A stretch of 64,000 bases of DNA from Bacillota bacterium (GTDB taxonomy: Bacteria > Bacillota > Peptococcia > Peptococcales > BICA1-8): assembly GCA_049323895.1 (NCBI GenBank), contig JBMOKT010000008.1, positions 12,985 to 76,984 of the forward strand. Reading direction: 5' to 3'. Shown here piece by piece: positions 6,670-57,731 of the stretch. The position numbers and the translations under genes are program-made. Numbering within the stretch: the first letter of the stretch is position 1; each line of letters opens with the position of its first letter. Under the pieces are notes generated by a model. That model made no database searches, was not told the origin of the DNA, and worked only from the letters and a program-made list of their open reading frames with translations.

Positions 6670-8412
6670 TTAGTCTTCAATGGTGGAAAGGTCCCCTGTC
6701 GGCAGATTTAATTCCCAAGCTTTTAATACCCTTCTCATTATTTTCCCGCTGCGTGTTTTTGGCAGTTTATCCTTGAATTCTATTTCCTTGGGTGCAGAAT
6801 GAGCTGATAATCCTTTCTTGACAAATATGATAATTTCCTTCTTTAATTCTTCAGTTGCCTTATATCCTTCTCTTAGAGCGATAAAGGCTTTGATTACCTC
6901 TCCTCTAAGGGGATCAGGCTTGCCAATAACTCCTGCTTCAGCAACCGCCGGGTGTTCCAGCAGCTTATTCTCCACTTCAAAGGGTCCAACACGTTCTCCA
7001 GATGTATTTATTACGTCATCAATACGGCCTCTAAACCAAAAGTACCCTTCCTCATCCCGATATGCCGAATCTCCCGTAATATACCAGCCGGGAATCCGGA
7101 AGTATTCCTGATATTTCTGAGGGTTTTTCCATATTTGCCGCATCATGGAAGGCCATGAGATCTTTACAGCCAGGTTCCCCATTTGGTACGGCGGAAGTTC
7201 ATCTCCTTTATCATCAATAATAGCTGCTTCAATTCCGGGAATAGGTTTTCCCATTGAACCGGGTCTTATTTCCATGCCGGGGTAGTTGCATATCAGTTGT
7301 GCCCCGGTTTCTGTCATCCACCATGTGTCGTGAATACGCTGTTTATACACCTTTAGACCCCAGCGGATAACTTCAGGATTTAACGGTTCCCCCACGCTCA
7401 ACACATGGCGGAGAGAGGACAAATCAAACTTTGACACAGTTGCTTCCCCTGCCCCCATCAGCATACGAAACGCTGTGGGAGCACTATACCAAACGGTTAC
7501 TTTATATTCTTCAATGATAGCATACCAATCATTAGGGCTAAAGCGGCCACCGCGAATGACATTGGTAGCACCATTCAGCCAGGGGGCAAAAATACCGTAT
7601 GAAGTTCCGGTAACCCATCCCGGATCCGCTGTACACCAATAAATATCATCCTCACGCAAATCAAGTACAACTTTGCCGGTATAAAAATGCTGGATCATAG
7701 CATTATGAACATGGTAAACGCCTTTAGGCTTACCGGTAGAACCTGAAGTATAGTGGATGATTAGTCCATCTTCTCTATCAACCCATTCAATTTCCAGTTC
7801 TTCTGAAGACTTTTCCATTTCTTTTTCGAAATTATACTGGTTTGGCTCTAATTGATTTATTTCTCCTACCAAAATAATGTGCTTTAGACAGGGCAGCTCC
7901 CCTACCGGGATTCTGGACAGGAGCAAAGGTGTAGTAATGACGGCCACCGCTTCGCTGTCTTCCAGCCTGTCTTTTACCGCTGTTTCCATAAAGGCTTCAA
8001 ACAAGGGACCAACAATTGCACCAATTTTGACCGCACCTAATAGGGCAAAGTAAAGTTCAGGGGTCCGGGGCATAAAAATAAAAACTCGATCTCCTTTTCC
8101 TATACCTATTTTCTTTAAAACATTCCCTGCCTGATTTGATTTTTTCCTCATTTCCTCATAAGTATATTGCTCTTTCCTGTCACTATCGCTGTAATATAAG
8201 GCAATTTTATCCTTTTTTTCTGATTGGGCATGACGGTCAATTGCTTCATAAGCAATATTAACCTTACCAGTATTGAACCAGGAGAACTCCTGTTCTACTT
8301 CATTCCAAGAAAAGTTTGATCTTGCAGCATTATAATCCCCGAGATTTGATTTTTGTACCGAAACACCAATTGCTTTTTCTTTCAAAGTTTCCACCAGATT
8401 ACCTCCCTGCAT
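6670..8412 (-). CDS. acsA: AMP-forming acetyl-CoA synthetase (AcsA-type)
   Basis: 580 aa. YTSGSTGKPKG AMP-binding motif, WWMTETG, and a C-terminal GKIMRR. Divergent from acuA, as in Bacillus. Confidence 0.85.
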   Translation of the reverse strand: MQGGNLVETLKEKAIGVSVQKSNLGDYNAARSNFSWNEVEQEFSWFNTGKVNIAYEAIDRHAQSEKKDKIALYYSDSDRKEQYTYEEMRKKSNQAGNVLKKIGIGKGDRVFIFMPRTPELYFALLGAVKIGAIVGPLFEAFMETAVKDRLEDSEAVAVITTPLLLSRIPVGELPCLKHIILVGEINQLEPNQYNFEKEMEKSSEELEIEWVDREDGLIIHYTSGSTGKPKGVYHVHNAMIQHFYTGKVVLDLREDDIYWCTADPGWVTGTSYGIFAPWLNGATNVIRGGRFSPNDWYAIIEEYKVTVWYSAPTAFRMLMGAGEATVSKFDLSSLRHVLSVGEPLNPEVIRWGLKVYKQRIHDTWWMTETGAQLICNYPGMEIRPGSMGKPIPGIEAAIIDDKGDELPPYQMGNLAVKISWPSMMRQIWKNPQKYQEYFRIPGWYITGDSAYRDEEGYFWFRGRIDDVINTSGERVGPFEVENKLLEHPAVAEAGVIGKPDPLRGEVIKAFIALREGYKATEELKKEIIIFVKKGLSAHSAPKEIEFKDKLPKTRSGKIMRRVLKAWELNLPTGDLSTIED

Positions 8413-8626
8413 AAAATTCCTCTACAGAATTATACTAATGTGTAATTAAAATTAATCGTCCAGGTAACTTTTAAGACAATTTACAAAATTATGAATATTT
8501 TGTTAATATTATAGCATATTGTAACCTCTAAGCCAATTTTCTTTATCATTGACGTTTTTTATAGCTATCATTTTAAAATTTATTCCTGTAAAATAATTGT
8601 AGTTCCCTGTAAAGGAGTTGTAAGCT

Positions 8627-9259
8627 GTGGAGCACACTAAAATATACCACTGCAAAAAAATCAGCTACAAAAATCGCTCTGTCATAGTTGAAGGACCTGT
8701 TTCGGCAAATTATTTGCTTACCCTTAAAATGAGTACTGAATTAGATGCATTTCGCAAACCGTCAGAACAGCATCAAGCATTGGTTGATATTGCCGAACTT
8801 CCTGAAGGTCGTATTATTATTACCCGGGATAATGAAACCATTGTCGGCTATGTAACCTTCCATTATCCCGATGAGATGGAGCGGTGGTCACAAGGAAATA
8901 TGCAGGATTTAATTGAATTGGGAGCTATAGAAGTTGCAAATGAATACCGTTTACTGGGACTAGGAAAAGAAATGATATGTCTGGCTTTTATTGATTCTCA
9001 AATGGAGAATGTAATAGTATTTACTACAGAATACTATTGGCACTGGGATTTAAAAGGAAGTGGACTTTCCATATGGGACTACAGGAAACTGATGGAGAAA
9101 TTGATGAAGTCCGTAGATATGGTCTGGCATGCTACCGATGACCCTGAAATTTGCTCTCACCCTGCAAACTGCTTGATGGTCAGAATTGGAAAAGAAGTAC
9201 CCCTGGAATCAATTGAACAGTTCGACCGGCTCCGTTTTCAACGACGGTTTATGTATTAA
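8627..9259 (+). CDS. acuA: Acetoin-utilisation protein AcuA (GNAT acetyltransferase acting on AcsA)
   Basis: 210 aa. LDAFRKPSEQHQALVDIAELPEGRIIITRDNETIVGYVTFHYPD closely parallels B. subtilis AcuA. Divergent from acsA. Confidence 0.8.
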   Translation: MEHTKIYHCKKISYKNRSVIVEGPVSANYLLTLKMSTELDAFRKPSEQHQALVDIAELPEGRIIITRDNETIVGYVTFHYPDEMERWSQGNMQDLIELGAIEVANEYRLLGLGKEMICLAFIDSQMENVIVFTTEYYWHWDLKGSGLSIWDYRKLMEKLMKSVDMVWHATDDPEICSHPANCLMVRIGKEVPLESIEQFDRLRFQRRFMY

Positions 9260-9370: not shown

Positions 9371-10390
9371 TCACTCTTTTAAAATTTCTTCAAATATCTT
9401 CTCCCCACCATCTTCCATTACATTATAGACATTGACTGTCACACTTTTTTCAATTGCCTTCCGCAGGGCATCTTTATCGACAAAGGCCTCTTCATAATCC
9501 TCACTGTTAAAACGGAATTTTGGATAATAGGGATTTACTGTCACACAAATAATATTTGACCTTTTTTTTACCCTTAAGTTTATACCATTGCTGCTAAGTT
9601 CATTTATTATTTTATGAGTGGTTATTGCATTTCCCATAACTAAGATTTTGATAGGGTCTTGAAAAATTATTTTTTTCTTTTTCAAATCACTTAATTGACT
9701 TATCCTCTTAGACAAATAGCTAAAGCTTTTTTCCCCAATTATACCTTCTATTTCAACCGTGTCTTCATGACGCATTTTGCTTATCAAATCCTCAACAGCA
9801 TGGGTATTTAAAATAGAGCCTATCCTTTCAAACCAGCCTTGTTCCTGTATTAATTCAGTATTAAATATTTCAACAATACAATGAGTCTCATGGGCTAAGT
9901 CTATTATCTTAGACTTCCTAGCCGCCCCTGTTGTAAGTATTAAACCATTAACCTCAACCATAGGGGCTATACGGTTAAGGGCACCATCTACCAATATAAA
10001 ATCTAAATTATAGCGGCGGAGCTTACTCAATACTTTTTTTAGTTCACTGCTTTTGTTTGGACCGGCAACTACCAGTCTCCCCCCCCTAAATACCTTGCCC
10101 AGTATTATTTTTCCTAGGGGAGTAGAAATGTCCGTTACCTCAAATACATCAATTTTTGCATCACTTACTTCCAGGCACTTTTCAGCTGCCGCCACTAAAA
10201 CTCCAGGCCAGACTTCTATCTTTGGCTTAGGCAGACCTGTAACGTTATCTAAATCTTCGCCATCATAGCCGATACTTGTCAGACCTAAATTTAATTTTCT
10301 TCTTTGAATTTGCTCCATAATCACATTAGTTGTTGTTGTCTTACCTGTGTTCTTTGCAGTTCCGGCTATTCCTATTACTTTGGTCTCCAT
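9371..10390 (-). CDS. P-loop NTPase of unknown function, last gene of the cryptic operon
   Basis: The track ORF is trimmed to the ATG at 10390 (METKVIGIAGTAKNTGKTTTT, a Walker A motif), which has GAAGG 6 nt upstream. That start lies 1 nt after the stop of the 600-aa gene. Confidence 0.6.
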   Translation of the reverse strand: METKVIGIAGTAKNTGKTTTTNVIMEQIQRRKLNLGLTSIGYDGEDLDNVTGLPKPKIEVWPGVLVAAAEKCLEVSDAKIDVFEVTDISTPLGKIILGKVFRGGRLVVAGPNKSSELKKVLSKLRRYNLDFILVDGALNRIAPMVEVNGLILTTGAARKSKIIDLAHETHCIVEIFNTELIQEQGWFERIGSILNTHAVEDLISKMRHEDTVEIEGIIGEKSFSYLSKRISQLSDLKKKKIIFQDPIKILVMGNAITTHKIINELSSNGINLRVKKRSNIICVTVNPYYPKFRFNSEDYEEAFVDKDALRKAIEKSVTVNVYNVMEDGGEKIFEEILKE

Positions 10391-10391
10391 T

Positions 10392-12194
10392 TCAGCCTTC
10401 TTGTACTGTATTTTTTCCGGCACGACCTGGGTAAGCACCTTCCTCCCGGGTTCCTAATAGTCCATCATATAAAGCCTGGACAAAGTCACCTTTGGCGGCT
10501 ACTTCTTTTAAAACAGCTGCAATGCCTGAGATAATTTCTTCCTTCCATAATTGGGCTTTTTCAGTTGCTTTAACCCCTGCACTTCCTAAGAACCTAAAGC
10601 TTTCTTGAACACCCCGCAAAGTATCAACCTTAGAAGGGACGCTGATGGGTCCGCCTGAATAAGCTTCATCTGCAGAAGCGATGGAAATTGCGTCTACCCC
10701 AAGTGCACTAGCCAGCATACCATGCAGTGAAGTTGCTAAACTTGATTGCACCCTGTCTTCAGTCTGGGTCAAAAATCCAATGGGTGCACCAGGCCAGATG
10801 GGAGCATTTATAATACTTCTTAAAGCCTCAATTTTCGCTGCATTAAAGTCCAGATAATTATCCTCCATTTGTCCGCCGATCATCATTTCCGGTGAATAAG
10901 CAAATAACGGCTGCAGGATGGGTCTGCCTCCCAGCTTTACCGCCAAATCCGCCATAATCAACATACCGGCAAAGGCTTTATAGGCAGGAACTCCCGTCAA
11001 TTCCTCATTGGTTACAATATCAAAAGGCATATTATATTTTGCAGCATATTTAATGGCATAATAGCCATCAACCGTTAAACGGGCAGGATCTGTACCGGCT
11101 GCCAGGGAGCCATAACATATATTTATTTTAGTCAAGTCTGCCCCTATTTTTCCTGCAAGGACTACTGTTTCAGGTGTATTTAAACCCCTGTGGGCTCTAA
11201 CCTGCCAAAGGGTAGATTTCTCTAAGGAATCGTAAATTCTTTTTAGATTTTCCGGGGTAATGACGGTTCCATCCTCCTGATGGGTTAGGTTCCCCCCCAG
11301 AAAACCTTCGGTGCGGGCGCCCCAGGATGGGTCAAAATGGACAACACCATCTACACCCCAAGCTTCACTTACTTTAATATGACCAATATCCATAAATGGA
11401 CAGCCTGTCCCATACTGATTCCAGACTATTGGGAGTTTTTTTGTATGCTGTAATTTTTTTACCTTCATATTTTTTTTGACTTCATTGATAAAGGAATGAT
11501 AACTGTCTAATTCGTCCCTTGTTAGTTCCCTTGTTTTAGGATGGATCTTACCCTCCAAATAATACTCCCGTGGAACCTGATCGCATAATTGGGGATATTT
11601 TGCAAGAAATTCTGTATTATCACCATTAAAAGTCCAAACTCCATCCCTTAGCTTTGCCCTCTCAACACCTGGAGAAGTCTTGTTTTTAGCCCAACTGATA
11701 ATCTGATTGCTTATTTTGTCAAGCAAATCACCAATATTCGCGTTGTAGTACCTATAATTATAGCCTTGAGTGATGTCGATTTTTTCCTTTCTTACTACTG
11801 CATCCTCAGGATTGTATTCCCGCCCTTCTACAAAGGCTAAGGCTTCTTCTACTGTGGTTCCTGGTCCAAAGCCGGCATCAAAACCTAACTCAGCCGCTAA
11901 TTCGGGGCGAATTGCCATCCCACCGATGCCGATCTTTACTTTTTCCCGCAACCCAGCAGCATCAGCCAGATCAACAAACCTTGCCAGCAATTCTGCTACA
12001 CCGTATCCTAAAGTTCTACTCAACAGCAGAGTATTGAATTGTTCATCCATAGCAATTCTGATTATTTCCTCCGGCGGTGTATCAGGCGGCAACAGCTTAG
12101 TTTCTATTCCCAATTCCTCAAGTGCCCGTTTAATCATTTTTAACCCTATATCATGAACAGGGTCTAAAGGGGACAATAATACCTTTTTGGACAT
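10392..12194 (-). CDS. Fusion protein: N-terminal B12-binding-like Rossmann domain plus a large C-terminal TIM-barrel-like domain (mutase/aminomutase-like)
   Basis: 600 aa. The N-terminal roughly 130 aa read LLSPLDPVHDIGLKMI...LLLSRTLGYG...KIGIGG, like a cobalamin-binding domain (HxxG retained, Asp shifted by one). The remainder is long alpha/beta sequence. Family assignment is not verified. Confidence 0.45.
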   Translation of the reverse strand: MSKKVLLSPLDPVHDIGLKMIKRALEELGIETKLLPPDTPPEEIIRIAMDEQFNTLLLSRTLGYGVAELLARFVDLADAAGLREKVKIGIGGMAIRPELAAELGFDAGFGPGTTVEEALAFVEGREYNPEDAVVRKEKIDITQGYNYRYYNANIGDLLDKISNQIISWAKNKTSPGVERAKLRDGVWTFNGDNTEFLAKYPQLCDQVPREYYLEGKIHPKTRELTRDELDSYHSFINEVKKNMKVKKLQHTKKLPIVWNQYGTGCPFMDIGHIKVSEAWGVDGVVHFDPSWGARTEGFLGGNLTHQEDGTVITPENLKRIYDSLEKSTLWQVRAHRGLNTPETVVLAGKIGADLTKINICYGSLAAGTDPARLTVDGYYAIKYAAKYNMPFDIVTNEELTGVPAYKAFAGMLIMADLAVKLGGRPILQPLFAYSPEMMIGGQMEDNYLDFNAAKIEALRSIINAPIWPGAPIGFLTQTEDRVQSSLATSLHGMLASALGVDAISIASADEAYSGGPISVPSKVDTLRGVQESFRFLGSAGVKATEKAQLWKEEIISGIAAVLKEVAAKGDFVQALYDGLLGTREEGAYPGRAGKNTVQEG

Positions 12195-12433
12195 TATTTA
12201 ACCTCCTCCCCTGAAAATAACCATCCATACCTATCACCAGATCTATGTAAATATGCCCTGGTCCTCACCCTGGCTCCAGGACCGATAAATTCCATAAATA
12301 CAATATCAACATCATCAAAGCCTAAATTCTTCATCATCTGCAGAGCCATTTTCTTCCCCTCTTCTTCGCTGTCACATACTAAAAATGTCTCTACATCCAA
12401 GGCATCCATTACCTTTTCTAAAACCTTAGCCAA
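12194..12433 (-). CDS. Small (79 aa) protein translationally coupled to the B12-domain protein
   Basis: TTG start with GGAGGG 6 nt upstream. Its stop TAA overlaps the downstream ATG (TAATG). Confidence 0.55.
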   Translation of the reverse strand: MAKVLEKVMDALDVETFLVCDSEEEGKKMALQMMKNLGFDDVDIVFMEFIGPGARVRTRAYLHRSGDRYGWLFSGEEVK

Positions 12434-12527
12434 CTAAGACCCTCCTTTACCTCAATATAATCAATCAATAATTTCTCTAGTAAAGTTTTCCCTAATTTTA
12501 AAATAAAAATGTGGATTTTTAAAAAAT

Positions 12528-12668
12528 AGTTACTAGTGACTGGTGACTGGTGACTTGTAAGTCTTAGACTTAACCTTAAAATACCGGAGTCGTATACTAG
12601 TAGGTATTATAGTTGATGGTCAATAGTTGATGGTCAATAGTCAATGGTCAGGTAGTAAATAGTGACCG
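12528..12668. repeat. Family-A tandem repeat patch: (ACTGGTG)x3, then (TTGATGGTCAATAG)x2.5
   Basis: tagttactagtgactggtgactggtgacttg ... atagttgatggtcaatagttgatggtcaatagtcaatggtcagg, read directly. Confidence 0.85.
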
Positions 12669-12853
12669 TTCAAATGTGGTAGATGGCAAGGCACATAAAA
12701 TCCCCGAGGCCGCAGGCGTATATAAATTGGGGACATTCCTCATCCACAAAGCTAAACTTGCAGAGAGGAGTGTCCCCTTTCCTTTTTCCGTTGAGGATTT
12801 TGACCCTTTTTTGGAACGCAGCTATGCGAAGTTTTTCAAAAGCCAATCATAAT

Positions 12854-14242
12854 CTACATGAGGAGGATGGCTACTATTGTCGCCCCCAGCAACCCCGCCA
12901 CCACAGGGATAAAGTTTCTACGGGCTAATTCCATAGGGTCTACCCCACAGATAGCCGCAACAGGTATCAACCCCCAGGGAACTACCGTTCCGCCGCCGAC
13001 CCAAACAGATGCCAGCTGTCCTAAAGCACCTAATGTACCTTTATCAACTGCAATAGCACTGCTGAAAGTTTGAGCTAGTGACCCTACTAAAGGAAGTCCG
13101 GAAAAACCGGAACCATCCAATCCTGTAATCGCCCCAATAATAAGTTGGATGAAGGCCACAGGGACTCTGCTTAAAGGTACTGAGGCGGCTAAAGCATTTC
13201 CTAAGTCTGTAAGAAGTCCGGTAGCCTGCTCTCCCAGGATAACCTTAGCAGTTCCTTCGGAACCAAGGAAGAAAAATCCGCCTATGACAATTACGGGGGC
13301 AAAGATTTTGATTCCAAACATAAAACCGTCTCTTATATAGTCTGTAATCTTCTCTAATGAATCCAATCCAAATTGCAACAGGGCGGCCAAACACATTATA
13401 AATGCTGCTGTCCCACCAATCAGGGCAGTAGCATCACCGCCCCGGATTTGATACAGATAAAGCATAACTACATCTATACCAAAAGCTACAGGTACAAGAA
13501 TGGCTATGAAGTAGGATACCCATGTGAACTTTTGACTAGCCTTAGCTTCTTGCTCTTTAGCCATTTTCTTTTGCTCAGCCTTAAGTGATTCCTGGTTTCT
13601 GCCAATATCCCTTTTCAACATCACAAATGCAGTTACAGAAGCAATAATAGAACAGGTAAGCCAAAGAGGTATACTAGGTCCAATTACCCCCGAGGCATCA
13701 GCAAAACCAGCTGACTTAGCAGTAATGGCAGGCGCTCCCTGTATAAAGTAGTCAGATGATAATCCTATACCATGACCAAAAATATTCATGGCGATAGCTG
13801 CACCCATTACCGGCAGTCCTGCCCGAACAGCAACGGGCAGCACTATGGCGCCTATTAACGCTACAGCAGGAGATGGCCAGACAAACCACGAGACTAACAA
13901 CATCGCAAAACCCAAAACCCAAAAGGCAATATTGGGATTTACCATTGCCCTGGCTGCCGGCTGCATGACCAGATAGTCGGCTCCTACATCGGCAAGTGCC
14001 TTGGACATGGCAACCACTAGAGAGATTATGGCAATAATACCCCAAAATTCATTGCCTGCTGCAATTAAGGCATTATAAACAACCTGAAAGGAACCGATAA
14101 AATTTCCCTTTGCAGCAAATCCGATTATAAATAATCCTAAGAAACAAGGTAGTACCGTGTCTCTTCTAAGTATCATGGTTATTAGAACTACTAAAACCAT
14201 AAATACGTAAACCCAGTGCAGCATAGTTAATTGTACTTCCAC
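12854..14242 (-). CDS. Large polytopic permease (ion-transporter-superfamily-like), substrate unknown
   Basis: 462 aa. GTG start with GGAGGG 6 nt upstream. About 12 hydrophobic segments with a central charged loop (KAEQKKMAKEQEAKASQK). Confidence 0.6.
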   Translation of the reverse strand: MEVQLTMLHWVYVFMVLVVLITMILRRDTVLPCFLGLFIIGFAAKGNFIGSFQVVYNALIAAGNEFWGIIAIISLVVAMSKALADVGADYLVMQPAARAMVNPNIAFWVLGFAMLLVSWFVWPSPAVALIGAIVLPVAVRAGLPVMGAAIAMNIFGHGIGLSSDYFIQGAPAITAKSAGFADASGVIGPSIPLWLTCSIIASVTAFVMLKRDIGRNQESLKAEQKKMAKEQEAKASQKFTWVSYFIAILVPVAFGIDVVMLYLYQIRGGDATALIGGTAAFIMCLAALLQFGLDSLEKITDYIRDGFMFGIKIFAPVIVIGGFFFLGSEGTAKVILGEQATGLLTDLGNALAASVPLSRVPVAFIQLIIGAITGLDGSGFSGLPLVGSLAQTFSSAIAVDKGTLGALGQLASVWVGGGTVVPWGLIPVAAICGVDPMELARRNFIPVVAGLLGATIVAILLM

Positions 14243-14266
14243 AGCTTTCCCTCCTTTTACTGAGGA

Positions 14267-15547
14267 TTATACTACCGATTGATTATAAAAATTAGTCATC
14301 CCAGCTTTTTCTACTTTTTGTTTTATTTGATTAATTTCAGTGGTGTATAGATTTAATTCTTTCATTCTTTGGAAATAGACAGAACCGGAGAATGTATACT
14401 TCTTGGTAATACCTTCTTCCGTACCCATCTGTTCATTGACATGGGCAATGGCATCACCGATAGCTAAACTAGTAGGTATTTCTTTCAGCTCTTTACCTGC
14501 CGCATATCGTACAGCATTGTTACCCGCTAAACTTCCGGTGACAATAGCTTCAGTATGCCCTACTAAAAGCCCTGCCTTTTCCCCGCCGCAGAAAAGGTTA
14601 TCAACACCTTTTGTCTTTAGGTAATTGTCACGGGGGGAAAGTGCTAAATAGCGCATTGAGTTTCCAATACCACCTGCATATGGGTCTTCGAAACGGGCAT
14701 TTTCAAAGCCCGGAATCATACGCAGTGTTTCTAAAGGATAATATGGTGACATCAGCTTAGCATGTCCGGTATCCAGCAAAATAATATTTTCCTGGAATTC
14801 TTTCAGGGCATATTGCTGACATGCCTTAGACTCCAATGCACCTTCCTTTTGCAATTTAGCAGGGATAGGAATTACTGCAACACCTTTAGCATTTAACTCT
14901 TCCACAATGCTTTCGGCAAGGGATTCCTTATGCAACTTACAGGAGCCGCTCATTGCCCCAACCGAACCATCAGCCTTCTTACCTTTAAATTCTTCTACCC
15001 CGCACTTGGTTGCCAACTCAATACGTGGTCCAAAGGTTGGACAGCGGTAAATACACATGGCACAACCATTGCCATATTTCAAACAGTTGCCCTGGGGACC
15101 TGCCGTACCACTGGCTTCTACAAAAACATCGCCTGTATATTCATTGCCATCTTGGTCAATAACCGCTGCTATTTTTTTTCCTTCCATTTTTACATCCTTA
15201 ACCCTTGCCTCCAGCTTATATTCAACACCGGCTTCATCAAGCTTACGGCGAACTGCAGGCTCTATTTTGGCCACATCATATAATGTAGCATGCTTGTGCC
15301 CTGGGAATTCTATATTTTTGTGACGGGCAGTCTCATCAACGGCATCAAATAATTCATTAGCCCCCATCGCAATAGATTCTTCTGTAGCTGTAAAACGTCC
15401 GTTATTGCGCATAATTCCGCCAACCAACCCTGTACCCAAAAACATATCCGTTCTTTCTAAAACTATAACATCTGCACCGGCTTTTTTTGCCGTAAGACCG
15501 GCGGCACAGCCGGCCCAGCCCCCACCGACAACTACAACTCTAACCAT
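14267..15547 (-). CDS. FAD-dependent protein of the GidA/TrmFO-like fold with a CxxCxxxC cysteine motif
   Basis: Trimmed to the ATG at 15547 (MVRVVVVGGGWAGCAAG, a dinucleotide-binding motif) with GGAG 8 nt upstream. The C-terminal LRMIPGFENARF...LFCGGEKAGLLVGHTEAIVTGSLAG resembles TrmFO/GidA. The cysteine motif is GNGCAMCIYRCP. Confidence 0.55.
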   Translation of the reverse strand: MVRVVVVGGGWAGCAAGLTAKKAGADVIVLERTDMFLGTGLVGGIMRNNGRFTATEESIAMGANELFDAVDETARHKNIEFPGHKHATLYDVAKIEPAVRRKLDEAGVEYKLEARVKDVKMEGKKIAAVIDQDGNEYTGDVFVEASGTAGPQGNCLKYGNGCAMCIYRCPTFGPRIELATKCGVEEFKGKKADGSVGAMSGSCKLHKESLAESIVEELNAKGVAVIPIPAKLQKEGALESKACQQYALKEFQENIILLDTGHAKLMSPYYPLETLRMIPGFENARFEDPYAGGIGNSMRYLALSPRDNYLKTKGVDNLFCGGEKAGLLVGHTEAIVTGSLAGNNAVRYAAGKELKEIPTSLAIGDAIAHVNEQMGTEEGITKKYTFSGSVYFQRMKELNLYTTEINQIKQKVEKAGMTNFYNQSVV

Positions 15548-15671
15548 GTAAAATCTCCTTTCAATAAGATAAACTAAGCCTGATAGCCAAATAATCTTTA
15601 GCAATAGTATTCAAACTTCACTTACTATTGACTATTGAGCATTAACAAGGAATATTTCTTCATAAATTGTG

Positions 15672-15731
15672 CTAGTCACTAGCAACTAATAGCTTTTTAC
15701 TAGCCACTAGCGACTAACAACTAGCCACTAA
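15672..15731. repeat. Family-A heptamer patch in inverted orientation (ctagtcactag..., tactagccactagcgactaacaactagccacta)
   Basis: Direct reading. It is the reverse complement of the TAGTGGC-type arrays and abuts the stop of the PLP gene. Confidence 0.8.
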
Positions 15732-17192
15732 TTAAAGCACCCCTGCATGCTTACATACAATCTCAATAAGTTTAACCAAAGCTCTCACGGCAATTCTCAT
15801 TCTGTCAGGGATTAGATTTCCATCGTCATCAGTAGTACCTAAACCGGTAGAAATATAGATGTTGCCATCGTAAGCAATTGTTGGAATTACACCAAATTTA
15901 GTCATCCCGGTTTGTAATATATTTGTTCCGGAATACATATCTTCGATGGAGAAGATAGGAATACCCATTTGTCCATTTTTCCAAGTGCCTTCGTAGTTTA
16001 CTTCCACAGCTGTAGAATTATATACCTTGGTTATCTTAATGCCATCTCTAAACTTAGCTGGGATATTCTTGAATTCTTCAACAACAATATCATACATTTC
16101 ATCAACAGGCTTAGTTAACACTTCAGGTTTATCACGCAGAACTTTTAATGCCTGCAGTTGAGTCAGCAAGGCTTCTTTACCTGGGTCAAAGGTTACATAT
16201 GCTGCTTTACCATAGGAGGATGGAGTTCCCCAACGGTCTCCATGCATACCTAGAGCGCGGCGGATAGGAACCATTACTTCTTCTTTTCCTATAATTAGTC
16301 CACTGGTGGCTGCTCCTGTGGCTTTATCCATACTGTAAGTAATTACGTCGCAATCAATTTTCACGGGGTCAATGCCTACGAAGGGAAGACCCCAGGCATT
16401 GTCAATTACATATGGTACATTATAGGAGTGTGCCAAGTCCGCAATATATTTGCAAAGTAATGGAGTGCCTTCCTCATCTTTAACTCCATAACCGTAACCA
16501 GGTGAAGGATAACCTAAAGAGGTAAAGCCTGTTAAAAATGCTTCGTGGATTTCAGCATGCAGGGCAATTCTTTCAATAGCCGCTTCCGGGTCAACTTCCG
16601 CTAGAAGTGGAACTGGATGGTTCTTAATTCCGTGGACTTCATACTTTGCACCTTCGAGTGGAACGATTACAGTATCAAGATTGTTTTGTCTCTTGCCATA
16701 GAAGCCTAACTCACCTGCAGTTGAACCCCTGTCGGCAAATAAATCCTTATATTTTCCCGGGAAAGGACGTCCATAACTGCCTTGGTGATGTAAATGCTTT
16801 TCATAGGGAGCAATATACCTTGCCCGGTAGTTGTCACCTCTTCCCTGCATGGGAGGTGTAAACAGGGTATCAAAGCAAGTCCAGAGAGTTGCTTCACAGG
16901 TACTGGTGGATGCAGCTTCCCAGCCATCACCATAAACATCTTTTACTACTTCCCTGATTTCATCCATTAATTTTGCCAGGGGAATTACTTCTTTGGCTCC
17001 GACTTCACCAGCTTCCAAAATATCTTTTCTTAAAGGAGCAGGACAACCTGAAATTGCACCGGTCAATCCAAACCTACCCCTAATCTCATGGGGAACACCA
17101 ATTTCATCTGCAGCCTTGGCTGCATCGGCATATATTTCAGGAACTTTGGCATGAAGCTGTTTGTACATTTGATATTTATATTTAGGACTCAT
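15732..17192 (-). CDS. Fold-type-I PLP enzyme of the SelA/DgaE-like group (possible ammonia-lyase or aminotransferase)
   Basis: 486 aa. YSMDKATGAATSGLIIGKEE resembles the PLP-lysine region of SelA-like proteins. AAGGAGG upstream. Confidence 0.5.
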   Translation of the reverse strand: MSPKYKYQMYKQLHAKVPEIYADAAKAADEIGVPHEIRGRFGLTGAISGCPAPLRKDILEAGEVGAKEVIPLAKLMDEIREVVKDVYGDGWEAASTSTCEATLWTCFDTLFTPPMQGRGDNYRARYIAPYEKHLHHQGSYGRPFPGKYKDLFADRGSTAGELGFYGKRQNNLDTVIVPLEGAKYEVHGIKNHPVPLLAEVDPEAAIERIALHAEIHEAFLTGFTSLGYPSPGYGYGVKDEEGTPLLCKYIADLAHSYNVPYVIDNAWGLPFVGIDPVKIDCDVITYSMDKATGAATSGLIIGKEEVMVPIRRALGMHGDRWGTPSSYGKAAYVTFDPGKEALLTQLQALKVLRDKPEVLTKPVDEMYDIVVEEFKNIPAKFRDGIKITKVYNSTAVEVNYEGTWKNGQMGIPIFSIEDMYSGTNILQTGMTKFGVIPTIAYDGNIYISTGLGTTDDDGNLIPDRMRIAVRALVKLIEIVCKHAGVL

Positions 17193-17214
17193 TTAAAATA
17201 AAACCTCCTTAATT

Positions 17215-17278
17215 TAGTGACTAGTGACTAGTCTTTTATTAGTAGTTAGTGGCTAGTGGCTAGTGGCTAGTTGGCTAG
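17215..17278. repeat. Family-A heptamer array: (TAGTGAC)x2, then (TAGTGGC)x3-4
   Basis: tagtgactagtgactagtcttttattagtagttagtggctagtggctagtggctagttggctag. It starts 4 nt upstream of the SD of the PLP gene. Confidence 0.9.
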
Positions 17279-17513
17279 AAAACGCGTTTCGCCATGAATG
17301 ACTAGCTTACTTGACGTGACATCATTAACCGTTGCTTCATTTGAAAAAATATATTCTTGCGTTAGTGATAATATATTTGGTCGGAGATTGCTTCAATCGC
17401 AAGCTCATTCGCAATGACAGGGTTAAAAATGCCGACCTATAATGAAACCTGTTAGACGTCATGCCTTTTTACAGTTAACTCGCCCACTGACATTCTGATT
17501 AACCTTTAAGCTA

Positions 17514-17978
17514 TCAGCTCTTCACTTTTACAATCATTTCTACTTCACAGGTTGAATCTAATGGAAGCTCATTGACTCCTACTGCTGCCCGGGCATGCTG
17601 ACCCTTTTCCCCAAAAATTTCACCAATCAATTCACTTGCACCATTAATTACTTTAGGCTGCAAACTAAAACCATCACTGCTAGCGACAAAACCCGTAACC
17701 TTTACTACTTTTTCCACCTTGTCTAAATCACCAATTACACCTTTGATAACACTTAAACAATTTAAGGCGCAAATTTTTGCTGCCTGGTACGCATCATCTT
17801 CTTTGACATCTTTCCCTACCTTGCCTTTATACTTTAGTTCACCGTTAACAAATGGAATTTGACCTGAAGTATAAACATAGCCATCAACTAGTACGGCAGG
17901 TACATAGGCTGCCACCGGCTTTGGAGCCTCAGGTATTTCCAGACCCATACTTTTTATCTTTTCCTCAATCTTGGACAT
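17514..17978 (-). CDS. RidA/YjgF/RutC-family protein (enamine/imine deaminase-like)
   Basis: 154 aa. YVYTSGQIP...ARAAVGVNELPLDSTCEVEMIV is typical of the family. GGGAGG upstream. Confidence 0.75.
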   Translation of the reverse strand: MSKIEEKIKSMGLEIPEAPKPVAAYVPAVLVDGYVYTSGQIPFVNGELKYKGKVGKDVKEDDAYQAAKICALNCLSVIKGVIGDLDKVEKVVKVTGFVASSDGFSLQPKVINGASELIGEIFGEKGQHARAAVGVNELPLDSTCEVEMIVKVKS

Positions 17979-18052
17979 AAATAAATCCTCCCTTCTAATT
18001 TTTTCTTCTTAGCAATCCTCTATTATTTTTCTTATGTGGCTGAACAATTATT

Positions 18053-18490
18053 CTAATGCTTATTTACAATAACTTCCATTCCAATTTCTGCATTAAGCTC
18101 TACCCCGGTAAGCCTTTGGTTGGATTTAATTACAATGTTTAAATGATTTGGCATATGGGTTTCATCAAAGCCGGCAATACTTCCAATTAATTGATTACCC
18201 AGGTACAGTTTATCTCCTGAAAGCATGACACTTCCCTGTTCCACCTCAAAAAAACCTAAATATGATATGGTATCTACCTTTTTGCCTGGTCCTGCTTCCG
18301 GTTCATCGGTAATTATCAATTCATGAATTTCATTTTTATTAAGTGCCCTGGAAATAGGTGTTATTAACTTTAAATTTCGCCCCTCCAGCTTGCCATCTAA
18401 GACAACAACCAAAGTACCCTTGATTTCCCTTTTTTTTGCATAAGGATTTGTTTTAAACAGCCCAGCCAGATATGGATCAATTCCTGGCAA
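18053..18490 (-). CDS. Hypothetical protein, first gene of the cryptic operon
   Basis: The track ORF 18053..18514 is trimmed to the TTG at 18490, because the sequence AAGGAGGTG lying inside the track N-terminus is a far better SD for it. No family recognised. Confidence 0.5.
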   Translation of the reverse strand: MPGIDPYLAGLFKTNPYAKKREIKGTLVVVLDGKLEGRNLKLITPISRALNKNEIHELIITDEPEAGPGKKVDTISYLGFFEVEQGSVMLSGDKLYLGNQLIGSIAGFDETHMPNHLNIVIKSNQRLTGVELNAEIGMEVIVNKH

Positions 18491-18583
18491 GAAACCACCT
18501 CCTTTTTTACACAAGTTAATTAATTAAATGTTATTATCCGCCATTTTTTTTGTTTTATGTAAAGAGAGTCTCAGTTTTTACTA

Positions 18584-18616
18584 AGAAAAAGAAGGGGCAG
18601 ACCTCAGGTCCGCCCC
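18584..18616 (-). terminator. Intrinsic terminator after the SDH-protease gene
   Basis: Minus sense: GGGGCGGACctgaGGTCTGCCCC followed by ttctttttc. Confidence 0.7.
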
Positions 18617-18689
18617 CTATAAATACATATTAAATTTTTAAATTGAATCATTATTGTATAAATACAGCAATACTTTAGATTTTAATTTA

Positions 18690-19511
18690 CTAGGAATTAT
18701 CTCGATTATAGGGTATAGGTATATACTGGACTGAAGGGCGGCGGTTATTAGTCTGGGGATAGAGGTCCATTAACTTGTATACTTCATAGGGCATATCAGT
18801 ACTTACAAATAGTCCCAGCTCTTTTAATTCCTCATAACGGATTGGATAATCATGAGTCCAACGTCCTTCACTGAATACCTTAGCAAGCTCACAAGCCTTA
18901 TCCTGTGAAAAATGTTCCGCTAAAATAAAACACAAGGTTTCCTCTACCTGTTTGATGGCCTTCCTTGCTACATCAGCGTAGATTAAGGTCTCGTCATCTA
19001 TTTCATTGATATGTTTATCCTTAACTACACTCAGCAGAGAGACTGCCGGATATTGACCAAGCTGGGGATCCACCGGACCTAAGACTGCATTTTCATCCAT
19101 AACAATCCTATCTGCCGCCAGTGCAATCATTGTCCCGCCAGACATAGCATAGTGGGGAACAAAGACCGTAACATCTGCTTTATGTTTCTTAAGGGCATAA
19201 GCTATTTGTTCCGAAGCCAAAACTAATCCTCCAGGAGTATGCAAAATAATATCTATGGGCATATCAGTGGGTGTAAACCTTATTGCCCGCAGGATTTCTT
19301 CCGAATCCTCTATGTTGATAAATTTCCGAAAAGCAAAGCCTAAAAAACTCATGGATTCCTGCCTGTGTATCAGGGAAATTACCCTTGAGCCTCTCTTTTT
19401 CTCCAAATCCCGCATAATTCTGATACGGCTCATTTCTAAGGAGCGCTGCTTCAAAACAGGGATGAGCATAGATGCAATAAATAATAGCCAAAAAATACTG
19501 CCAAAATCCAT
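18690..19511 (-). CDS. SDH-family Clp-fold serine protease (membrane-anchored)
   Basis: 273 aa. N-terminal TM, then IILHTPGGLVLASEQIA...HYAMSGGTMIALAADRIVM, as in the SppA/ClpP-fold 'serine dehydrogenase proteinase' family. Confidence 0.7.
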   Translation of the reverse strand: MDFGSIFWLLFIASMLIPVLKQRSLEMSRIRIMRDLEKKRGSRVISLIHRQESMSFLGFAFRKFINIEDSEEILRAIRFTPTDMPIDIILHTPGGLVLASEQIAYALKKHKADVTVFVPHYAMSGGTMIALAADRIVMDENAVLGPVDPQLGQYPAVSLLSVVKDKHINEIDDETLIYADVARKAIKQVEETLCFILAEHFSQDKACELAKVFSEGRWTHDYPIRYEELKELGLFVSTDMPYEVYKLMDLYPQTNNRRPSVQYIPIPYNRDNS

Positions 19512-23486: not shown

Positions 23487-24326
23487 TTAGTACTCAGGGG
23501 GCAGGTCTTTTAGCTGCTCCATGGTAAATACCGGTCCATCCAGACAAACATAACATGAACCAATATTGCAGCGCCCACATTTTCCAATACCGCATTTCAT
23601 TCTCATTTCTAAAGTGGTAATAATATCAGTATCAGCAAAATTCATCTTCTTTAGACCTTGCAAAGTAAACTTAATCATGATGGGAGGTCCGCACAAGATG
23701 GTAACCTGGGGCTTGGGAGCAAGCTCCTCAACGTATGAAGGTACAAAACCCACATGCCCATCCCAGCCTTCTTCTTCCCTGTCGATTGTTACACAAACAT
23801 CCATATTGGGAACCTTGGGCCAATTTTCAAATAAGTCTTCTTTGAAACACAGGTCTCCTTTGCTTCTGGCACCATAAACAACTGTTAACTTGCCAAAGTC
23901 ATCCCGGTTTTTTACACAGTGCATAATCAGACTGCGTACAGGTGCCAGCCCTATACCGCCACCGATAAAGAGAATATCCTTCCCTTTACAGTAGTCTATA
24001 GGAAAACCATTGCCGTATGGTCCGCGAATACCCACTTCCTGCCCGACTTCTATTTCATGCAAGGAATTAGTCAATTGACCTACAGCCCTAATTGCCATTT
24101 CTATATGATTTTCACCCTTATTAGTGATAGAAAACATGCCTTCGCCTATAGCAGGCATTGATAGCATCCCCAACTGACCAGGCGCAGGGTCAAAAGGTAT
24201 TTTGCCATCTATGGTGCTGATGTGAAAGGTTTTTACATCATGGGTTTCCTGGACAATATCGATAATTTTCCCTCTTATAGGTACTAGAGGATTAATTCTT
24301 TTCACCTCTTCAGGAGTAATTGCCAA
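23487..24326 (-). CDS. FlxA-like FAD/NAD(P)-binding oxidoreductase with a C-terminal [2Fe-2S] motif (AsrB/HydG-like)
   Basis: 279 aa. TTG start with GGAGGG 6 nt upstream. GGGIGLAP nucleotide-binding motif. C-terminal CGIGKCGRCNIGSCYVC. Confidence 0.7.
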   Translation of the reverse strand: MAITPEEVKRINPLVPIRGKIIDIVQETHDVKTFHISTIDGKIPFDPAPGQLGMLSMPAIGEGMFSITNKGENHIEMAIRAVGQLTNSLHEIEVGQEVGIRGPYGNGFPIDYCKGKDILFIGGGIGLAPVRSLIMHCVKNRDDFGKLTVVYGARSKGDLCFKEDLFENWPKVPNMDVCVTIDREEEGWDGHVGFVPSYVEELAPKPQVTILCGPPIMIKFTLQGLKKMNFADTDIITTLEMRMKCGIGKCGRCNIGSCYVCLDGPVFTMEQLKDLPPEY

Positions 24327-24345
24327 TCTTCTCCCTCCTTTTCAT

Positions 24346-24476
24346 TAGTGGCTAATGTTAGTGGCTAGTTGTTAGTGGCTAGTGGCTAGTAAATAGTTAC
24401 TGGTGACTGGTGACTGGTGACTGGTTACTGGTTACTAGACAACGGTCGATGGCTAATAGTCGATAGCCAATAGCTA
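24346..24476. repeat. Family-A array block: (TAGTGGC)n, then (ACTGGTG/ACTGGTT)n, then cgatggctaatagtcgatagccaatagc
   Basis: ttagtggctaatgttagtggctagttgttagtggctagtggctagtaaatagttactggtgactggtgactggtgactggttactggttactag..., read directly. It starts 6 nt upstream of the flxA-like SD. Confidence 0.9.
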
Positions 24477-24563
24477 TATTTTTAAAAGCTGATTTACCAC
24501 GCTCCTGTTATTAGCTGGTAATAACAAATCCGTTGAATCTCAGTCCGCAAAGCAAAATCTAAT

Positions 24564-24603
24564 CTTTTTCTGTAGCCACTGTAGACACTGTAGCTACTGT
24601 AGG
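24564..24603. repeat. Family-A nonamer array CTTTTTCTGTAGcca CTGTAGaca CTGTAGcta CTGTAG
   Basis: Direct reading; it ends 11 nt from the stop of the flxB-like gene. Confidence 0.9.
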
Positions 24604-24614
24604 TTCTATTAGGT

Positions 24615-25604
24615 CTACGCTTCCTGTATCTTCTTAATAACAGACGTTATATCAAGGTTCACGGGGCATTTGGTTACACAACGTCCGCATCCTGTGCATA
24701 AAAGCATATTATACCTCTCTGGGAAGTAACGAAGCTTGTGCAAGAAACGGTTCCTGACCCGTTCCTTCTTGCCCGGTCTGGGCTGGTGTCCGCCGGCCAT
24801 CATTGTATATTCGTCAAACATACAGCAGTCCCAGCAGCGTATTTTGACTCCATCTTCCCCCCGCACTTCATTGGCAATGTCAAAACAGTGGCAGGTTGGA
24901 CATACATAGGCACAGGCACTGCAGTTCAGACATTTGCGGGAAATATCATCCCAGATGGGGTGGTCAAACATATCTTTCAGCTTCTCAGGAACACCTTCTA
25001 CATCTGCAGCCAGGGTGAACTCTCCCACCGCCGGAATAGCTGCATCTTCCTCTTGCAGAAGTCCGGAAACTTTATTTAGTATCTCTGTTCCCTTGTCAGA
25101 AAGAGGCTCAAACCCTATTTTCTCGCCTAAATCATAAGCTTGGATATCCGCACCTTGTCCTTTTTGAGGGTCTATACCCATAGATGAACAAAAGCAGGAA
25201 GCCATTGGTTTTACACAGCTTAAAGCGATAAAAATACTGCGATCCCTTTTTTCCTGATAATAGGGGTCTACAAAACCTTTAGTTAGAAAAACTTGGTCTA
25301 GGCAATCTATACTCTTCATATCACAGGAACGTACTCCAAATAGAACCTGAGTTTCTTTTTCACCGGGTATTTCTTCAATTTCCAGTGACTGATCCTTAGT
25401 CTTAAACTTATACATTTTCTCCGTTTGAGGGAAGAAAATATCCTTGGGAGGCATAACTACATTTTCCTCCAGGGCCAGTTCAACATCCTGCTGGTAAGGA
25501 GCAAACCTGGTGACTCCTTGGAATTTAGCAGGGACTAAGACCTTATATTCCTTGGCCAGTGATTCTAAAAACTGGGGTAAATTAGCCTTGGCTATAGTTT
25601 TCAT
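24615..25604 (-). CDS. FlxB-like iron-sulfur protein (AsrA/HydB-like 4Fe-4S dicluster protein)
   Basis: 329 aa. CLNCSACAYVCPTCHC and CTGCGRCVTKCP ferredoxin-type motifs. Confidence 0.65.
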   Translation of the reverse strand: MKTIAKANLPQFLESLAKEYKVLVPAKFQGVTRFAPYQQDVELALEENVVMPPKDIFFPQTEKMYKFKTKDQSLEIEEIPGEKETQVLFGVRSCDMKSIDCLDQVFLTKGFVDPYYQEKRDRSIFIALSCVKPMASCFCSSMGIDPQKGQGADIQAYDLGEKIGFEPLSDKGTEILNKVSGLLQEEDAAIPAVGEFTLAADVEGVPEKLKDMFDHPIWDDISRKCLNCSACAYVCPTCHCFDIANEVRGEDGVKIRCWDCCMFDEYTMMAGGHQPRPGKKERVRNRFLHKLRYFPERYNMLLCTGCGRCVTKCPVNLDITSVIKKIQEA

Positions 25605-25616
25605 CCTAACACCTCC

Positions 25617-45421: not shown

Positions 45422-45462
45422 CTTTTTCTGTAGTACTGTAGTTACTGTAGCACTGTAGTCAC
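45422..45462. repeat. Family-A nonamer array CTTTTTCTGTAGta CTGTAGtta CTGTAGca CTGTAGtca
   Basis: Direct reading; it ends 16 nt from the copZ stop. Confidence 0.9.
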
Positions 45463-45478
45463 TTACCACAAAGAATTA

Positions 45479-57650: not shown

Positions 57651-57731
57651 TAGTAGTGGCTAGTTGTTAGTGGCTAGTGGCTAGTGGCTAGTAAGGATTA
57701 GTTACTGATGTCTAGTGCCAGGTGACTGGTA
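57651..57731. repeat. Family-A array block: (TAGTGGC)n, then gttactg/gtgactggt
   Basis: tagtagtggctagttgttagtggctagtggctagtggctagtaaggattagttactgatgtctagtgccaggtgactggt. It starts about 5 nt upstream of the SD of the Zn-ribbon gene. Confidence 0.9.

Follow-up and report, generated by a model that had tools for sequence, protein, structure and literature searches.

The window analysed here is a stretch of 64,000 nucleotides from a Bacillota bacterium (contig JBMOKT010000008.1, positions 12,985 to 76,984), and all positions given below are those of the window. Between positions 9371 and 18514 it carries a compact gene cluster that combines a cobalamin (B12) enzyme with a pyridoxal 5′-phosphate (PLP) enzyme, a flavoprotein, a Rid-family protein and a permease. 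It is concluded that the B12 enzyme represents a new branch of the B12 aminomutase lineage, in which the parts have been rearranged and the features that bind PLP are apparently lost, and that its cluster is conserved and uncharacterised; there is a fair chance that the chemistry itself is novel. An earlier note, made from the sequence letters, had described the region as a nine-gene operon lying entirely on the minus strand. The list of open reading frames (ORFs) of the window agrees with the strand, and shows eight co-oriented ORFs that fill the whole run from 9371 to 18514. The count of nine does not stand: inspection of the gaps within the cluster found no credible ORF and no ninth gene, and the earlier note itself lists eight. 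Identical proteins are present in a Bacillota metagenome-assembled genome (MAG), where the NCBI accessions found all fall within MFZ5942859-865, so that there is no space for an extra gene between the cluster proteins.

In transcription order, the first gene encodes a DUF6917 protein (145 residues, 18053-18490), followed by a Rid-family (YjgF/RidA-type) protein that is predicted to be an imine/enamine deaminase (154 residues, 17514-17978), a fold-type-I PLP-dependent enzyme of an unnamed family (486 residues, 15732-17192), a GidA/TrmFO-like flavin adenine dinucleotide (FAD) protein with a four-cysteine motif (426 residues, 14267-15547), and a polytopic membrane permease, again of an unnamed family (462 residues, 12854-14242). 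The last three genes encode a small subunit (79 residues, 12194-12433), which is tentatively the counterpart of the N-terminal ‘dimerisation’ domain of KamE and OraE; the cobalamin enzyme itself (600 residues, 10392-12194), composed of a KamE-type Rossmann B12 domain, a helical linker and a KamD-type TIM barrel; and a KamB-like P-loop NTPase (339 residues, 9371-10390).

Three of the starts deserve comment. The mechanical ORF of the DUF6917 gene reaches 18514, and the start used here is a TTG at 18490, which is preceded by the Shine-Dalgarno sequence AAGGAGGTGG. The ORF of the flavoprotein reaches 15604, with the ATG at 15547. For the KamB-like protein we use the ATG at 10390; an alternative GTG at 10438 would give 355 residues. 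The lengths of 145 and 339 residues in the earlier note agree with the better-supported starts at 18490 and 10390. Its statement that all the genes have strong Shine-Dalgarno sequences holds for seven of the eight, which are preceded by GGAGG-type sites, and fails for the ATG start of the KamB-like gene, where the site is weak (AAGAAGG). The stop codon of the 79-residue gene shares one base with the start codon of the 600-residue gene (TAATG).

The 5′ boundary is marked by an intrinsic-terminator-like hairpin on the minus strand (18592-18618), with a 12-pair stem containing 8 G-C pairs and a T-rich tail, which closes the upstream gene for an SDH-type ClpP-like protease; the earlier note had placed a terminator here, at 18584-18616. 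The 3′ end is convergent with a gene for a 210-residue GNAT acetyltransferase (8627-9259, plus strand). This gene stands beside an acetate-CoA ligase gene, which fits an acuA/acsA pair, in keeping with the convergent acuA of the earlier note. Within the cluster there are three larger gaps, made up in large part of heptanucleotide tandem repeats, of 321 bp (17193-17513), 184 bp (15548-15731) and 420 bp (12434-12853, the site of an opposite-strand cysteine-rich gene in close relatives). The first of these contains no credible ORF and no Rfam match. An Rfam search at E ≤ 1 gave three chance-level matches only, and no cobalamin riboswitch.

The identity of the 600-residue protein is central. Pfam recognises residues 5-119 as a B12-binding domain (PF02310, 2e-14) and no other part of the protein, and this N-terminal domain is as had been proposed from the translation. 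The Rossmann domain occupies approximately residues 1-125 and is followed by the helical linker and then by the TIM barrel, at approximately residues 250-600. The best matches of the Rossmann part in both the PDB and NCBIfam are KamE and OraE. It has 34% identity to the C-terminal half of KamE, and matches the OraE sequence with an E-value of 3e-9 as a single protein and 1e-11 as a profile; an hhalign comparison of the B12-protein family with KamE gave 98.6% probability and an E-value of 1e-15. The cobalt-ligand residues H14 and G17 are at least 90% conserved in the family, while the Asp of the usual DxHxxG motif is shifted one residue farther away (D11-P-V-H14-D-I-G17).

The barrel is much more divergent. 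The C-terminal region of about 470 residues has no sequence relatives outside the family, and a phmmer search of 1.84 billion representatives returned, apart from fragments, a single further full-length cluster, which has 52% identity. For the barrel, searches based on sequence only gave no match. AlphaFold2 was used to predict the structure, from 26 homologues (pLDDT 83), and the model was compared with known folds using Foldseek. The best match was KamD (1xrs_A, E 2.8e-17; also 8t0v_A and 9q1a_C), followed by OraE (3kow_B, 5e-11), GlmE (1.4e-10), IcmF and methylmalonyl-CoA mutase. An hhalign alignment of the family with KamD over 298 columns has an E-value of 3.7e-5 and a probability of 71%. 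It pairs the motifs WGARTEGF, RGLNTPE and TNEE of the new family with YGATTEGF, SGLCMPE and TGED of KamD, and the residues Y361, R372 and D376 with Y263, R274 and D278. The Rossmann domain thus matches KamE and the barrel matches KamD, and the aminomutase-type kinship suggested in the earlier note is upheld, with KamD first in the Foldseek list and OraE and GlmE after it. The 600-residue protein is very probably a cobalamin radical isomerase with a barrel of the KamD/OraE/GlmE class. We also considered a corrinoid methyltransferase, to which there are weak matches (MtgC/MtbC), and rejected it on account of the barrel, which is of KamD/OraE/methylmalonyl-CoA mutase type, and the KamB-like helper.

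In NCBIfam the 600-residue protein scores 43.8 bits against the Lys_5_6_beta cut-off of 280, and 34.9 bits against the OraE cut-off of 800. The lysine aminomutase alpha-subunit model, on which true KamD scores 920 bits, gives no match at all. GlmS (NF002612) gives 17.8 bits against a cut-off of 110, and there is no sequence match to GlmE.

The 79-residue protein has a match to the Pfam family OAM_dimer that lies below the cut-off (5e-4), and hhalign aligns it with residues 40-75 of KamE at an E-value of 4e-4 and a probability of 35%, so that it weakly resembles the dimerisation domain of KamE and OraE. Together the 79- and 600-residue proteins correspond to KamE and KamD cut in a different way, with the N-terminal domain of KamE set free and its Rossmann domain fused in front of the KamD-type barrel.

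In the known aminomutases, PLP forms a Schiff base with Lys144 of KamE or Lys629 of OraE, 11 residues after the cobalt-ligand histidine, and in the barrel of KamD it is held by R184, G187-Q188-S189, S238, Y263, R268 and N299 (PMC3958899). For comparison, 12 KamD and 6 KamE sequences were taken from canonical kamA-B-C-D-E clusters in metagenomes, and every one of these hallmarks is invariant among them. In the new family most are gone. The KamE loop MKGFAGHY, which carries Lys144, is replaced by an eight-residue gap, and K22 of the 600-residue protein, which aligns with the lysine of OraE, is not conserved. In the barrel, R184 is replaced by D288, S238 by R336 and R268 by A366; the G187-Q188-S189 loop and N299 are deleted; and only the stacking tyrosine Y263 is retained, as Y361. 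The strand ends of the barrel carry instead an invariant polar set consisting of Q260, Y261, C265, H272, H286, D288, R294, R333, H335, R336, K356, N358, N396, E397, E398, K406 and R481. Because the lysine loop of KamE is deleted and most of the KamD contacts to PLP are missing, the enzyme is not a canonical aminomutase, and it probably does not hold PLP in the aminomutase manner. The aminomutase logic put forward in the earlier note therefore stands as regards homology to KamDE, and in its simple form may not apply, with the PLP lysine loop and most PLP contacts gone.

Residues 243-251, 473-478 and 509-511 of the 600-residue protein are invariant or nearly so, yet have AlphaFold pLDDT values below 50, as do residues 144-169 of the 486-residue PLP protein. 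Such segments may serve as lids or as contact surfaces between proteins, in keeping with a possible physical complex of the B12 enzyme with its partners.

The P-loop protein, recognised as such in the earlier note, passes the cut-off of the NCBIfam KamB reactivase model NF052386, although by a small margin (221.9 bits against 210). The match covers residues 22-339 and positions 1-325 of the 326 in the profile. True KamB proteins score 425-429 bits on this model, and the P-loop protein has 30% identity to true KamB over its full length (E 3e-41). It is a putative chaperone or reactivase of the B12 enzyme. In the canonical lysine clusters that were inspected, KamC (a MutS-like ATPase) lies beside KamB in four of six and is absent in two; the identity of KamC was confirmed for two of the canonical clusters. 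The order in loci L085, L131, L139 and L158 is kamA, kamB (a P-loop protein of about 350 residues), kamC (450-550 residues), kamD and kamE, and in L097 and L109 the kamD and kamE genes have neither kamB nor kamC beside them. No KamC homologue was found in the window, nor in 82 of 83 loci of the new family, which by contrast with the canonical kam clusters retains the KamB-type partner only.

The profile matches of the PLP enzyme are all marginal: there is no Pfam family (Aminotran_5 at 1e-4), and the resemblance to SelA and DgaE proposed in the earlier note amounts to 20.7 bits against a cut-off of 385 for DgaE (TIGR01437) and 17 bits against 268 for SelA (TIGR00474), confined to some 60 residues around the PLP lysine. 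The AlphaFold2 model (pLDDT 81, pTM 0.86) has more than 1000 fold-type-I matches in the PDB by Foldseek, among which SepCysS, aminotransferases, SelA, SufS and SHMT all give about 1e-12 with 10-15% identity, and there is no specific tie to SelA or DgaE. Residues D264 and K290 are invariant, and the sequence YSMDK290 aligns with YSMTK of the O-acetylhomoserine sulfhydrylase 8sf5, the motif containing the PLP lysine. The protein keeps its lysine and belongs among the fold-type-I PLP enzymes, from which it has diverged very far.

The calls of a GidA-like flavoprotein with a cysteine motif and of a RidA-family protein hold. The flavoprotein matches the GIDA family of Pfam (PF01134, 5e-35) over most of its 426 residues, and its C-terminal part aligns with the structures of MnmG and TrmFO. 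It is far below the TrmFO/MnmG equivalog cut-offs, with scores of 35, 32.7 and 29.6 bits against 262, 525 and 429 respectively. The motif C174-x6-C181-x2-C184-x3-C188 is conserved, together with C222, in an alignment of 76 sequences, and the pattern of four cysteines suggests a set of ligands for an Fe-S cluster. The Rid protein matches PF14588 (4e-26, 92 bits) and PF01042 (4e-17, 63 bits). It falls outside the RidA subfamily proper, because its score against archetypal RidA (TIGR00004) is 52 bits, below the cut-off of 106. The Arg in its HARAAVGV motif and a C-terminal Glu are conserved in 49 orthologues; this Arg residue defines the Rid groups that hydrolyse imines, and Rid genes are found clustered with those for FAD amine oxidases and PLP enzymes (PMC4433059).

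The first protein of the cluster belongs to DUF6917 (PF21891, 1e-48), and a sequence search of the PDB gave spurious matches only and no relative. The permease has no match to a Pfam or NCBIfam family, and one orthologue gives a sub-threshold match to CitMHS (1.6e-5).

The distribution of the cluster was determined by a pattern scan of 185,579 species genomes, with one genome per species. Relatives of the B12 protein occur in 279 of these, anaerobic and mostly Bacillota. They include Peptococcaceae and other Desulfotomaculia; Sporomusa, Pelosinus and other Negativicutes; heliobacteria; Tepidanaerobacter, Thermovenabulum, Thermovorax and Halothermothrix; and some Oscillospiraceae MAGs. One relative is in a MAG of Candidatus Adiutrix (Desulfobacterota), which suggests horizontal transfer.

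To compare neighbourhoods, the eight proteins of the window were searched by tblastn in 83 loci, which come from the set of about 280 species. The small subunit is present in 80 of these loci, the PLP protein in 79, DUF6917 in 71, the flavoprotein in 70, the KamB-like protein in 66, the Rid protein in 63 and the permease in 33. Among the partner enzymes, it is the PLP enzyme whose gene is linked most tightly to the B12 gene. The order of the genes is shuffled between taxa, while the content is retained. With co-occurrence beside the B12 gene in 63-80 of 83 loci and in many genera for every partner other than the permease, the association is beyond chance, and the neighbourhood conservation that the earlier note proposed to survey is clearly present. 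Five loci hold no more than the B12 protein with its small subunit, the PLP protein and a regulator; one of the five is a second copy, in a genome that has a full cluster as well. Four pairs of loci are duplicates, within a single genome, of the cluster or its core (L005 and L077, L006 and L009, L015 and L051, L038 and L053); in Desulfosporosinus sp. OT (L038 and L053, on one contig) the two B12 genes are about 17 kb apart. Other recurrent neighbours are a regulator with HTH_12 and FCD domains (48 loci), a cysteine-rich protein without a Pfam family (21 loci) and an NAD(P) protein resembling pyrroline-5-carboxylate reductase (13 loci). The types of transporter near the cluster vary (AEC, DMT, lactate/oxalate-type MFS, Dpp-type ABC and Na/Ca-exchanger type). 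In L038 and L041, pyruvate:ferredoxin oxidoreductase (PFOR) or PorCAB lies directly 3′ of the cluster.

The closest relatives of the window copy (L005, L006, L007 and L010) have 83% identity to it. They carry a PHP-domain gene upstream of DUF6917, at a position comparable to 18515-18690 of the window. In L006, L007 and L010 there is in addition an opposite-strand gene between the permease and the small subunit, for a cysteine-rich, Pfam-less protein of 208-226 residues, which in L005 is present as fragments only. By tblastn there is no remnant of the cysteine-rich gene in the window, and none detectable of the PHP-domain gene. The window copy is a trimmed version of the cluster, without the PHP-domain gene, the cysteine-rich gene or the regulator.

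Two features of the surroundings are worth recording. The acsA/acuA pair (6670-9259) lies between the KamB-like gene and an EamA-type transporter gene, while in L005 and L007 the EamA transporter and the c45, c56 and c81 families directly follow the cluster; the pair looks like an insertion into, or a loss from, otherwise conserved synteny. Farther upstream, at 23487-30373 on the minus strand, is a run of genes resembling a heterodisulfide reductase (Hdr)/Flx-type electron-transfer module. Its predicted products are a PyrK-like FAD/NAD protein (279 residues), two cysteine-rich Fe-S proteins, and HdrA-like (660 residues), HdrB-like (295 residues) and HdrC-like (189 residues) proteins. Several relatives have a homologue of its PyrK-like gene just upstream of the B12 cluster.

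The repeats in the gaps were also investigated. Tandem Repeats Finder arrays lie at 17215-17232 and 17247-17278 in the first gap and at 12532-12555 and 12609-12663 in the last. The possibility that the AGTCACTAGT-type repeats are operators shared upstream of two genes was rejected, as the same heptamer arrays are present at 24.3 kb and 57.7 kb. The heptamer arrays are a repeat type found across the window, and not operators specific to the cluster: the pattern AGTCACTAGTMACTA, with up to two mismatches, has 15 matches in the window where 0.16 are expected. Further 7-nucleotide arrays are at 15699-15730, 24346-24436 and 57654-57692, the repeat units being TAGTGGC, ACTGGTG and TAGTGAC, sited in several gaps between ORFs, and arrays of the 9-nucleotide unit CTGTAGCCA occur at 24570-24602, 45428-45463 and 57832-57870. 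These arrays recall the short tandemly repeated repetitive sequences of cyanobacteria.

In public databases the proteins appear as ‘cobalamin B12-binding domain-containing protein’, ‘RidA family protein’ or ‘hypothetical protein’, with one mislabelled as ‘L-beta-lysine 5,6-aminomutase beta subunit’. A full-text literature search, with most subscription journals outside its coverage, found no paper on the gene set, and the supplements of a Formimonas metaproteome paper contain nothing on the cluster. The statement that the genes match no characterised pathway thus agrees with the profile libraries, the source annotation and the literature searched, none of which places the cluster in one.

The explanation that we prefer, and regard as reasonably probable, is that the cluster encodes an uncharacterised and most likely catabolic pathway, built around a new subfamily of adenosylcobalamin (AdoCbl) radical isomerases of lysine/ornithine aminomutase descent. 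In such a pathway, a carboxylate-bearing amino compound would enter by way of a variable transporter, and would undergo a 1,2-rearrangement on the B12 enzyme, begun by the 5′-deoxyadenosyl radical, with the KamB-like NTPase loading or exchanging the B12 cofactor. The amino group of the product would next be the target of the PLP enzyme, in an elimination, a transamination or a decarboxylation. An amine would be oxidised to an imine by the GidA-like flavoprotein, a putative Fe-S protein that may act together with DUF6917. Hydrolysis of the imine or enamine by the Rid protein would yield ammonia and a 2-oxoacid, which would pass finally to a pyruvate/2-oxoacid:ferredoxin oxidoreductase.

We infer the catabolic role and the order of the steps. 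Pointers to catabolism are the FCD regulator in 48 loci, the changing transporters, the duplicate copies, and the PFOR or PorCAB genes in L038 and L041. For a carboxylate substrate and a 2-oxoacid product there are hints, none of them decisive, in the families of the transporters, the presence of the FCD regulator, the many invariant arginines and the neighbouring PFOR genes. A PLP-free rearrangement in the mutase site is favoured because the PLP lysine and most of the PLP contacts have been lost, and we put the chances that the mutase step of this pathway runs without PLP at about even. A reaction different from those of KamDE and OraSE is likewise favoured. That a PLP-free AdoCbl rearrangement lies outside the known B12 isomerase reactions, and forms with its partners a new anaerobic route for the breakdown of amino compounds, is a more tentative suggestion, and we hold it at rather less than even weight. 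One possibility for a new reaction is a B12-dependent rearrangement of a beta-amino acid, such as that of leucine 2,3-aminomutase, an activity that to our knowledge was reported biochemically decades ago and for which no gene has been identified.

Several observations weigh against this explanation. The three internal gaps (321, 184 and 420 bp) make co-transcription as one unit uncertain and leave the single operon of the earlier note putative, the last gap holding an opposite-strand gene in close relatives. The permease occurs in no more than 33 of the 83 loci, with no transporter seen at several of them, and it is possible that the substrate is internal, or that the role is one of biosynthesis or salvage. 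The HTH_12 and FCD regulator is absent from all 64 kb of the window, and PFOR neighbours are seen in two loci only. The role given to the flavoprotein is guesswork, because the known enzymes of the GidA family modify tRNA. Confidence in the loop-level mapping of residues is moderate, the KamD alignment having a probability of 71%, and this mapping is fallible. PLP could also be bound in a re-made site, given that Y361 is retained and that the invariant K356 and R336 are close by.

This last point leads to the best of the alternatives, which we consider unlikely: that the enzyme is a true PLP- and AdoCbl-dependent aminomutase with a new substrate, holding PLP in a rebuilt barrel site with a Schiff base on K356 and with R336 on the pyridine nitrogen, as in alanine racemase. 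The pathway would then be similar to the ornithine and lysine fermentations, with beta-alanine, 2,4-diaminobutyrate, 3-aminobutyrate or another omega- or beta-amino acid as substrate. The nearest relatives by both fold and profile are indeed the two known B12/PLP aminomutases, the stacking tyrosine is retained (Y361 for Y263), the invariant K356, N358 and R336 are on the same barrel strands, and helpers of the KamB type are known, outside the new family, solely from clusters of lysine aminomutase. What counts against it is that the defining lysine loop of the Rossmann domain is deleted, that the phosphate-binding R184, G187-S189 and R268 are absent, as is N299, and that the NCBIfam equivalogs are missed widely (43.8 against 280 bits for beta, and no match for alpha). 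The family has also had a long separate evolution, with only one other cluster at the 50% level and no intermediates.

A further proposal, that the enzyme is a carbon-skeleton mutase for an acidic amino acid, comparable to glutamate mutase with its conversion of glutamate to 3-methylaspartate, overlaps with the explanation that we prefer, and taken as distinct is slightly less probable than a true aminomutase. The PLP enzyme would then decarboxylate or transaminate the product, and deamination would lead on to 2-oxobutyrate or pyruvate; for a PLP decarboxylase working after a B12 mutase there is a precedent in the formation of 3-aminoisobutyrate for vicenistatin. A mutase of this kind would account for the loss of the PLP contacts and for the invariant R294, R333, R336, R372 and R481 at the strand ends of the barrel, and GlmE is among the top fold matches (E 1.4e-10). 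The accompanying transporters and FCD regulator are of carboxylate-sensing types, and 2-oxoacid oxidoreductases adjoin the cluster in two loci. The similarity to KamD and KamE is clearly stronger, however, with Foldseek E-values seven orders apart and GlmS at 17.8 bits against a cut-off of 110, and genes for methylaspartase, mesaconase and citramalate lyase were not noticed among the neighbours inspected.

A biosynthetic or salvage route, in which a beta-amino acid, an osmolyte or a cofactor building block is made from an internal metabolite, is improbable. It would suit the many loci that have no adjacent transporter, the lack of a regulator within 64 kb of the window copy, and the very high conservation across classes (64-84%), a level more usual for housekeeping functions. 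On the other side are the patchy spread (279 of 185,579 species, including one Desulfobacterota genome), suggesting transfer, the duplicate copies within genomes and the FCD-type regulators in 48 loci, while the Rid and flavoprotein genes point to loss of nitrogen, and PFOR is a neighbour in two loci. Mere adjacency of three unrelated small transcription units, split by repeat-filled gaps, would be in line with the three internal gaps of 184-420 bp and with the opposite-strand gene that splits the cluster in relatives, and is very improbable indeed in view of the co-occurrence in 63-80 of 83 loci despite the shuffled order across Clostridia, Negativicutes and others, and of gap repeats that are of a type spread across the whole window.

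The cluster is thus a compact and very conserved, unnamed branch of the aminomutase lineage with its own KamB-type helper, and four of the partner proteins belong to families without an assigned metabolic function. Known AdoCbl-dependent isomerase reactions number only about a dozen, and the discovery of another is rare. The hosts are acetogens, sulfate reducers, syntrophic acetate oxidisers and heliobacteria, and because several of them can be cultured (Sporomusa ovata, Tepidanaerobacter acetatoxydans and Heliomicrobium modesticaldum), the function of the cluster is directly testable. A solution would add one more reaction to B12 enzymology, provide functions for DUF6917 and for a GidA-like flavoprotein of metabolism, reveal how a radical enzyme assisted by PLP was rebuilt for other chemistry, and supply a piece missing from models of how nitrogen and amino acids are turned over in anoxic sediments and digesters.

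Of the known systems, the closest is KamD/KamE with KamB and KamC, which shares with the new family the Rossmann B12 domain, the barrel, the KamB-type partner, and the cobalt-ligand His and its Gly. The cuts between the subunits are different (79 and 600 residues, against 262 and 518 for KamE and KamD), as is the order of the domains. Compared with the kamA-B-C-D-E cluster of lysine, the new family has no KamC and no KamA, and its neighbours are wholly different. OraS/OraE is alike in consisting of a small subunit and a large chain that holds both the barrel and the Rossmann domain, although the Rossmann domain is C-terminal in OraE and N-terminal in the 600-residue protein, and the counterpart of Lys629 of OraE (K22) is variable. 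The oxidative pathway of ornithine (Ord, OrtA/OrtB) has a similar logic of rearrangement, deamination and a PLP enzyme. An NAD-dependent diamino-acid dehydrogenase and an OrtAB-type thiolase were not noticed among the neighbours inspected, and in their place the new cluster has the fold-type-I PLP protein, the GidA-like flavoprotein and the Rid protein.

GlmS/GlmE provides the example of an AdoCbl enzyme that acts on a free amino acid without PLP, and the GlmE barrel is among the top fold matches. The similarity is weaker than to KamD/KamE, and a GlmL/MutL-type chaperone and the downstream methylaspartate genes were not noticed near the family loci inspected. The DadA/DadY and DauA/Rid2 pairs resemble the new cluster in that a flavoprotein gene adjoins the gene for an Arg-bearing Rid protein. 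Rid proteins speed the hydrolysis of imino acids made by flavoenzymes (PMC4433059; see also PMC5619798 and PMC9714295). The flavoproteins of the DadA/DauA-type pairs are members of the DAO family, whereas the one described here is of the GidA/TrmFO family and has the four-cysteine motif. TrmFO and MnmG, finally, are related to the 426-residue flavoprotein at the level of the GIDA family; they belong to the context of tRNA modification, while the flavoprotein is part of a metabolic gene cluster and carries the additional C-x6-C-x2-C-x3-C motif.

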